The position numbers and the translations under genes are program-made. A stretch of 64,000 nucleotides of DNA from assembly GCF_024700885.2 (NCBI RefSeq), contig NZ_CP117016.1, one strand, 5' to 3'. The DNA is from Escherichia coli. Its GTDB lineage: Bacteria; Pseudomonadota; Gammaproteobacteria; Enterobacterales; Enterobacteriaceae. Shown here in pieces: positions 10,920 through 11,186 of this stretch. The notes beneath the pieces were generated by a model. The model saw only the letters and a program-made list of their open reading frames with translations. It was not told the origin of the DNA and did not search any database. Position 1 is the stretch's first letter, and every line of letters starts with the position of its first letter.

Positions 10920-11182
10920 TTATTGCCTGGTTGACGCTTCTGAAGCGTAATGCACCACGCACTGCCAGTCGCTGCCCTGCTGGCAATATATCGCTTCGGT
11001 TTGCCCAGGGATCACCCATTGTATTTCCTCGCCGGGCAGACAGGTCAGCCAAATGCATAACCCGCAGCCGCCGCGTAAATCACGGGGAATATCGCTGACG
11101 CGAAAAGTCATGCCCGCTGCCTGCAACGCCTTACGGGTTTGTATGACGCCGACCGTGGAGTGAAATAAAAATAAAAACTCTT

Positions 11183-11186
<4 letters not shown>
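10920..11186 (-). CDS. Small hypothetical protein (88 aa) translationally coupled to yjiL; possibly DUF3343-like
   Basis: ORF start overlaps the yjiL stop by 4 bp; Cys-containing small protein; family assignment is a guess. Confidence 0.45.

Follow-up and report, generated by a model that had tools for sequence, protein, structure and literature searches.

What does the small gene immediately downstream of yjiL encode, and does its product belong functionally to the yjiM-yjiL system? The question arose from a 64,000-nucleotide stretch of Escherichia coli DNA (the window), in which an open reading frame at 10920-11186 had been described, with no strand given, as an unannotated-looking ORF of 88 amino acids that starts on the stop codon of yjiL, contains a CGLC motif and could be a small redox or carrier partner of the operon. 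The program-made list of open reading frames places it on the minus strand, with 88 codons, an ATG start at 11186-11184 and TAA (10920-10922) as its stop codon, and translates it as MKEFLFLFHSTVGVIQTRKALQAAGMTFRVSDIPRDLRGGCGLCIWLTCLPGEEIQWVIPGQTEAIYCQQGSDWQCVVHYASEASTRQ. On the minus strand, 11183-11186 is ATGA, in which the ATG of the small frame (11186-11184) and the TGA of yjiL (11185-11183) have two bases in common. The CGLC motif occupies residues 41-44 (11055-11066, minus strand), with C41 encoded at 11064-11066 and C44 at 11055-11057. As the frame, the ATGA overlap and the motif were each verified, all three elements of the original observation are real.

The frame is nevertheless not an unannotated one. 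It is ytiA, whose product is listed in RefSeq as WP_000657670.1 at the identical locus of an identical genome and as WP_000657675.1 in K-12, under the label "DUF3343 domain-containing protein" or "putative Se/S carrier protein"; the gene name ytiA is used in K-12-type genomes, and UniProt holds the 85-aa K-12 allele (YTIA_ECOLI) under the title "Uncharacterized protein YtiA". The exact 88-aa sequence is recorded on 899 contigs. A megablast search with the region found ytiA in 5385 of 5426 complete E. coli genomes, and the 88-aa allele in about 644 of the 5426, O157:H7 among them. Literature matches to the name ytiA concern, to go by their titles, the unrelated ytiA of B. subtilis, an L31 paralogue, and not the E. 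coli gene. In short, ytiA is an already known and annotated gene with no assigned function, and its detection adds little as a finding.

The K-12 protein is encoded by the same gene in the same place, 3' of yjiL and with the same 4-nt overlap. Its first 60 residues are near-identical to those of the window protein, the DIPRDLRGGCGLC stretch included, whereas the C-terminal tails differ (…QGSDWQCVVHYASEASTRQ in the window and …QDGVWRCIAHYGVSPR in K-12), mainly over the last ~20 residues, and the two alleles are 85-86% identical. The variable tail extends from about residue 61 to the end (10920-11006, minus strand), and megablast similarity to K-12-type genomes begins only at 10976, within the 3' end of ytiA and beside a variable island. 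Whereas yjiK is directly adjacent to ytiA in K-12, a gene for a 758-aa pentapeptide-repeat protein (8381-10657, minus strand) lies between the two in the window. This protein matches the Pfam Pentapeptide family (E = 1e-31), resembles the T3SS effectors PipB, PipB2 and SopA weakly, in NCBIfam matches below threshold, and contains tandem repeats of a proline-rich 'PKIP…' type and an acidic 'DSIEKQ(P/A)(S/N)' type; its frame is intact in the window, whereas the annotation of an otherwise identical RefSeq genome gives it as a frameshifted pseudogene. The ytiA-yjiL region (10920-11956) is also unusually divergent within E. coli: most genomes are only 90-95% identical over ytiA, and dS reaches ~0.44-0.48 against another genome labelled E. 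coli (L013).

Conservation of the frame after yjiL in other genomes, the check suggested with the original prediction, was examined by scanning one genome per species with a narrower alignment (A3), whose reach is Enterobacterales only, and the outcome is positive. A ytiA homologue directly follows yjiL and yjiM in all of the 45 loci obtained, which represent Escherichia, Citrobacter, Klebsiella, Raoultella, Kluyvera, Kosakonia, Phytobacter, Atlantibacter, Cedecea, Superficieibacter and Hafnia. The frame is intact (78-89 aa) in about 42 of the 45, and its overlap with yjiL is -4 nt in most loci, -1 in eight and -8 in three. The ATGA overlap (11183-11186, minus strand) is consistent with translational coupling of ytiA to yjiL; the co-translation that was originally proposed appears to be right, and a start/stop overlap is kept in nearly all of these 45 species loci. 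Degraded cassettes were seen in only three, single species genomes (L020, L055 and L056): yjiL is interrupted in Citrobacter koseri NCTC10786, and a strain of C. amalonaticus and Enterobacter sp. EA-1 each have a disrupted ytiA or yjiM. Apparent natural fusions of YjiL and YtiA (P0125, P0143 and P0144) turned out on inspection of their sequences to be frameshift garbage.

Among 27 alleles, the median dN/dS (Nei-Gojobori) is 0.20 for ytiA and 0.10 for yjiL; within ytiA it is 0.15 for codons 1-60 and 0.39 from codon 61 to the end. The gene is under purifying selection. A chance frame or a non-functional remnant could account for the variable tail, for the few degraded cassettes and for the result that no NCBIfam model matches YtiA; this explanation is refuted by the conservation data, with frame and overlap conserved in about 42 of 45 species and a dN/dS of 0.2, and the Pfam match above cut-off and the confident structural model described below also stand against it, so that its probability is negligible. 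That the ORF is ytiA is nearly certain, and so is its status as a genuine protein-coding gene that closes a yjiM-yjiL-ytiA operon. Promoter and terminator scans gave results at chance level only, and no FNR-like box was found in the yjiN-yjiM intergenic region.

The nature of the two partner genes bears on what YtiA might do. The yjiL gene (11183-11956, minus strand) encodes a predicted ATP-dependent activase/reductase of the BcrAD_BadFG family (PF01869, 254 bits; TIGR00241, 361 bits), in agreement with its annotation, and yjiM (11960-13111, minus strand) encodes a double-cubane-cluster protein (DCCP) of 383 aa with the ATG at 13111 as its start. With the NCBIfam model NF040772 "double-cubane-cluster-containing anaerobic reductase" (cut-off 350), YjiM reaches 531 bits, and its residues 26-383 align to PDB 6ENO, the DCCP of Carboxydothermus hydrogenoformans, with E = 1.7e-74. 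A DCCP with an adjacent BcrAD_BadFG ATPase, the composition of a double-cubane reductase, is found here; by homology, YjiM is assigned to the double-cubane-cluster reductase family and YjiL is the predicted matching ATP-driven electron donor. The pair had been described as a putative dehydratase and its activator, but YjiM is no established dehydratase, and since it is of the NF040772/6ENO type and YjiL is a BcrAD_BadFG/TIGR00241 ATPase, this designation represents an older annotation. Both starts are ambiguous: yjiM could be read from a GTG at 13132 onwards (390 aa), whereas RefSeq uses the ATG at 13111, and the yjiL frame opens at a GTG at 11956, whereas RefSeq uses the second GTG, at 11950. 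In O157:H7, yjiM goes up with the oxygen-limitation regulon (PMC2241611).

The YjiM-YjiL pair resembles the DCCP/DCCP-R system of C. hydrogenoformans (6ENO, 7YYL; Jeoung and Dobbek) in subunit and ATPase family, although YjiM is the shorter 'class II' form, unlike the C. hydrogenoformans DCCP. That system consists of two components, with no small third protein mentioned in the review (PMC7317905), whereas the Enterobacterales operon adds YtiA.

The guess that YtiA might belong to DUF3343 proved correct. It matches Pfam PF11823 (Se_S_carrier, formerly DUF3343) with 48.4 bits (cut-off 25, E = 6.3e-13), residues 4-59 (11010-11177, minus strand) corresponding to positions 2-57 of the 69 in the profile. 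As in the description of the family by Lin et al. (2015), it is a small stand-alone protein (88 aa, the family having ~80-100 aa) with one highly conserved cysteine. The AlphaFold2 model (pLDDT 88, pTM 0.79) is arranged as beta-alpha-beta-beta-alpha-beta-beta, and its fold matches are PII, UreE, CutA and DUF2179, all of them ferredoxin-like; no solved structure of any relative was found by sequence. There is hardly any doubt that YtiA is a single-domain DUF3343 protein whose alpha/beta fold is ferredoxin-like and in which one cysteine, C41, is invariant across the family. Exhaustive and word-indexed profile searches retrieved thousands of DUF3343 proteins. Database matches that end or start near residues 41-44, which were considered as possible selenocysteine variants with an in-frame UGA, were found from their sequences to be frameshifted or chimeric assemblies.

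In an alignment of 36 members that reach down to 18-25% identity (A2), only F8, P34 and C41 are invariant, and L21, G42 and Y67 are nearly so; the family signature around C41 is P-R-x-L-x-x-x-C-G. The two cysteines of the CGLC motif differ in their conservation. C41 is present in 36/36 sequences of this alignment and in 24/24 of an alignment of Enterobacteriaceae (A1), whereas C44 is present in 23/24 of the latter and in 23/36 of the former, the other 13 having Ser, Ala, Gly or Thr. Position 44 is a cysteine in 15 of 28 distant family members and is conserved in Enterobacteriaceae only. Even among metagenomic homologues that are linked to yjiML, C44 is replaced by Gly (L120 and L121) or Ala (L122 and L123), so that CGLC is no obligatory redox centre of the CxxC type. 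The weight that had been put on the CGLC motif therefore does not hold, C41 being the only cysteine that is invariant across the family, and whatever chemistry YtiA carries out would depend on C41.

These residue counts bear directly on the redox half of the original prediction, in which YtiA would be a CxxC thiol-disulfide protein that donates electrons to YjiL/YjiM, accepts electrons from them or controls them through disulfide exchange. The near invariance of the C41-G-L-C44 motif in Enterobacteriaceae is what would be expected of such a protein, but the loss of C44 from yjiML-linked homologues and from almost half of the distant members is not. YtiA is also unlike thioredoxin-type CxxC proteins, in that C44 is not conserved and the fold is not that of thioredoxin. 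In addition, the potential of a dithiol couple is much too positive for reduction of the [4Fe-4S] cluster of an activase. We consider a CxxC redox function to be very unlikely.

The contexts in which the DUF3343 family occurs elsewhere point to the carrier half. Three Clostridia-type homologues (25-36% identity) lie in the order SelD - Aminotran_5 (Sec-lyase/desulfurase-like) - YedE - TusA - DUF3343 - YqeC, and in these clusters the end of TusA and the start of DUF3343 share 4 nt; another homologue follows a YedF-like TusA-DsrE fusion. This cluster, from SelD to YqeC, is conserved on Clostridia-like contigs (L057-L060, ~2400-6950), in which YedE corresponds to Sulf_transp, and in L058 and L059 YqeC is followed by molybdenum-cofactor genes, the selenium-dependent molybdenum hydroxylase trait. 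The DUF3343 genes of selenium clusters (PMC5322559) share with YtiA the domain, the size, the invariant cysteine within P-R-x-L-x-x-x-C-G and the position as the coupled downstream gene of a pair; they follow TusA/YedF, whereas ytiA follows yjiL without an adjacent selenium gene, and identity is only 25-36%. The neighbours in the window are yjiL, yjiM and the pentapeptide-repeat gene, and not the YedF, Sec lyase and SelD genes that are typical of the family, although not defining for it.

From genomic evidence of this kind, Lin et al. (2015) put forward the idea that DUF3343, with its conserved cysteine, is a Se/S chaperone, and their STRING table for Slackia links DUF3343 to a "CoA-substrate-specific enzyme activase" and HGD subunits (PMC5322559). 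Haft (2022) reported that 955 of 970 strong NF040772 double-cubane proteins are from SelD-containing genomes. The literature yielded no experiment on any member of DUF3343, and the name of the family, which implies binding or transfer of sulfur or selenium, is based on gene neighbourhood only. TusA and YedF (PF01206), the frequent genomic partners of DUF3343, are likewise small alpha/beta proteins with one essential cysteine and are proposed or known persulfide carriers, but their active-site motif is C-P-x-P, whereas YtiA has C-G-L-C. Homology between YtiA and TusA was considered and rejected, with no PF01206 match and an hhalign probability of 0.5% between alignments A2 and A5.

The occurrence of DUF3343 beside double-cubane reductases was further examined in metagenome contigs, which were scanned with an alignment of YjiM, L009 and 6ENO; the 80 loci returned were searched with the DUF3343 HMM, YjiL and YjiM. 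A search for YjiM homologues gave close relatives only, the best 120 all being at least 86% identical, and diverse DCCPs were reached by adding 6ENO to the alignment. Wherever YjiM is at least 79% identical and enough downstream sequence is available, every metagenomic locus has yjiL and then DUF3343. At 61-68% YjiM identity, however, no DUF3343 was found within 5 kb in 10 of 11 distinct loci (filters off, E up to 50), although the activase is present. DUF3343 is accordingly not a regular third component of DCCP systems, and when the genes around distant DCCP loci were counted by Pfam family, no sulfur or selenium genes recurred. In L125-L139 the DCCP-activase pair is a self-contained two-gene module in unrelated neighbourhoods, which include two-component regulators, transporters, hydrogenase maturation genes and a molybdopterin enzyme, with no common accessory gene. 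The exception is L140 (325-4293), in which a DCCP (61% identical to YjiM), an activase and an Aminotran_5 gene (desulfurase/Sec-lyase-like) are convergent with a pair of genes, a YedF-like TusA-DsrE fusion and DUF3343, whose overlap is 4 nt. Together, the presence in all loci of at least 79% identity, the absence from 10 of 11 at 61-68% and the exception of L140 indicate that DUF3343 is a clade-specific addition to the DCCP-activase module. This addition extends across Enterobacterales, and the association has arisen independently in at least one further case.

Within that clade, ytiA is co-inherited with yjiML. The cassette of HGD-D, BcrAD_BadFG and Se_S_carrier genes is found in Klebsiella, Kosakonia and Atlantibacter with differing flanking genes. 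In addition, a metagenomic cassette (L009, 2192-4380), compared with 10920-13111 of the window, has a YjiM that is 82% identical and a DUF3343 protein that is only 35% identical, indicating very unequal evolutionary rates in one cassette. The linkage of YtiA to YjiM and YjiL is based on this cassette with different flanks, on the 35%-identical homologue that is still in place, on the overlaps in 45 species and on its presence in all loci of at least 79% identity.

The same observations decide how much weight to give to a sulfur or selenium carrier that is merely co-transcribed with yjiML, has no direct role with YjiM and finds its partners elsewhere (YedE/YedF, SelD or cysteine desulfurases). 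Outside Enterobacterales most DUF3343 contexts pair the protein with TusA/YedF and not with an activase, and most distant DCCP-activase pairs are without an adjacent DUF3343, as such independence would predict. Against this, the three genes move as a unit among differing chromosomal contexts, and the overlap with yjiL is kept in 45 species even though YtiA falls to 35% identity while YjiM is at 82%. We regard mere co-transcription as unlikely, though as an explanation to be kept in mind.

The distant loci bear also on a maturation function, in which YtiA would supply a bridging sulfide or selenide to YjiM or chaperone the assembly of its [8Fe-9S] double-cubane cluster. A small protein with a single invariant cysteine, encoded beside a complex Fe-S enzyme, would suit such a function, and Haft (2022) raises a Se-bridged cluster as a formal possibility. 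However, the DCCPs at 61-68% identity are of equal length (~383 aa) without an adjacent DUF3343, and most of the DUF3343 genes found here are not beside any DCCP. A role as a maturation factor of YjiM is, in our judgement, rather improbable.

A small redox or carrier partner of the operon, as originally proposed, remains a plausible description of YtiA, and the carrier half of it is favoured by the genomic contexts of the DUF3343 family. The reading that we prefer, tentatively and with slightly less than even confidence, makes YtiA a carrier of sulfur or selenium, bound to C41, that acts together with YjiM and YjiL. The carrier role is suggested by C41 in all 36 members aligned, by the coupling of DUF3343 to TusA/YedF in selenium clusters, by L140 and by the reports of Lin et al. 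(2015) and Haft (2022). One atom of sulfur or selenium would be attached to C41 in an adduct of the persulfide or perselenide type, and YtiA would pair with the oxygen-sensitive, ATP-driven, low-potential reductase formed by YjiM, with its double-cubane [8Fe-9S] cluster, and YjiL. It might then either present the protein-bound sulfur or selenium species to YjiM for reduction, or take up the product of YjiM and pass it on, e.g. to selenophosphate synthesis. In Enterobacteriaceae, C44 could serve as a local thiol, either resolving or as a second ligand, yet would be dispensable.

A more specific version, which is unlikely as it stands but of wider consequence, is that YtiA is the physiological substrate carrier of the class-II reductase YjiM, the C41-bound sulfur or selenium (e.g. 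Cys-S-Se(0)) being reduced to selenide or sulfide by YjiL/YjiM with low-potential electrons energised by ATP. If true, it would account for the open substrate channel of YjiM and for the finding that double-cubane proteins and SelD co-occur almost perfectly, and it would give the double-cubane reductases a first natural substrate. Three observations, the conserved and coupled DUF3343 gene in Enterobacterales, L140 and the Slackia cluster, point to sulfur or selenium trafficking for YjiM/YjiL. The value of ytiA is modest: it offers a genetically testable hypothesis in E. coli that would tie the double-cubane reductase of this species to the trafficking of sulfur or selenium.
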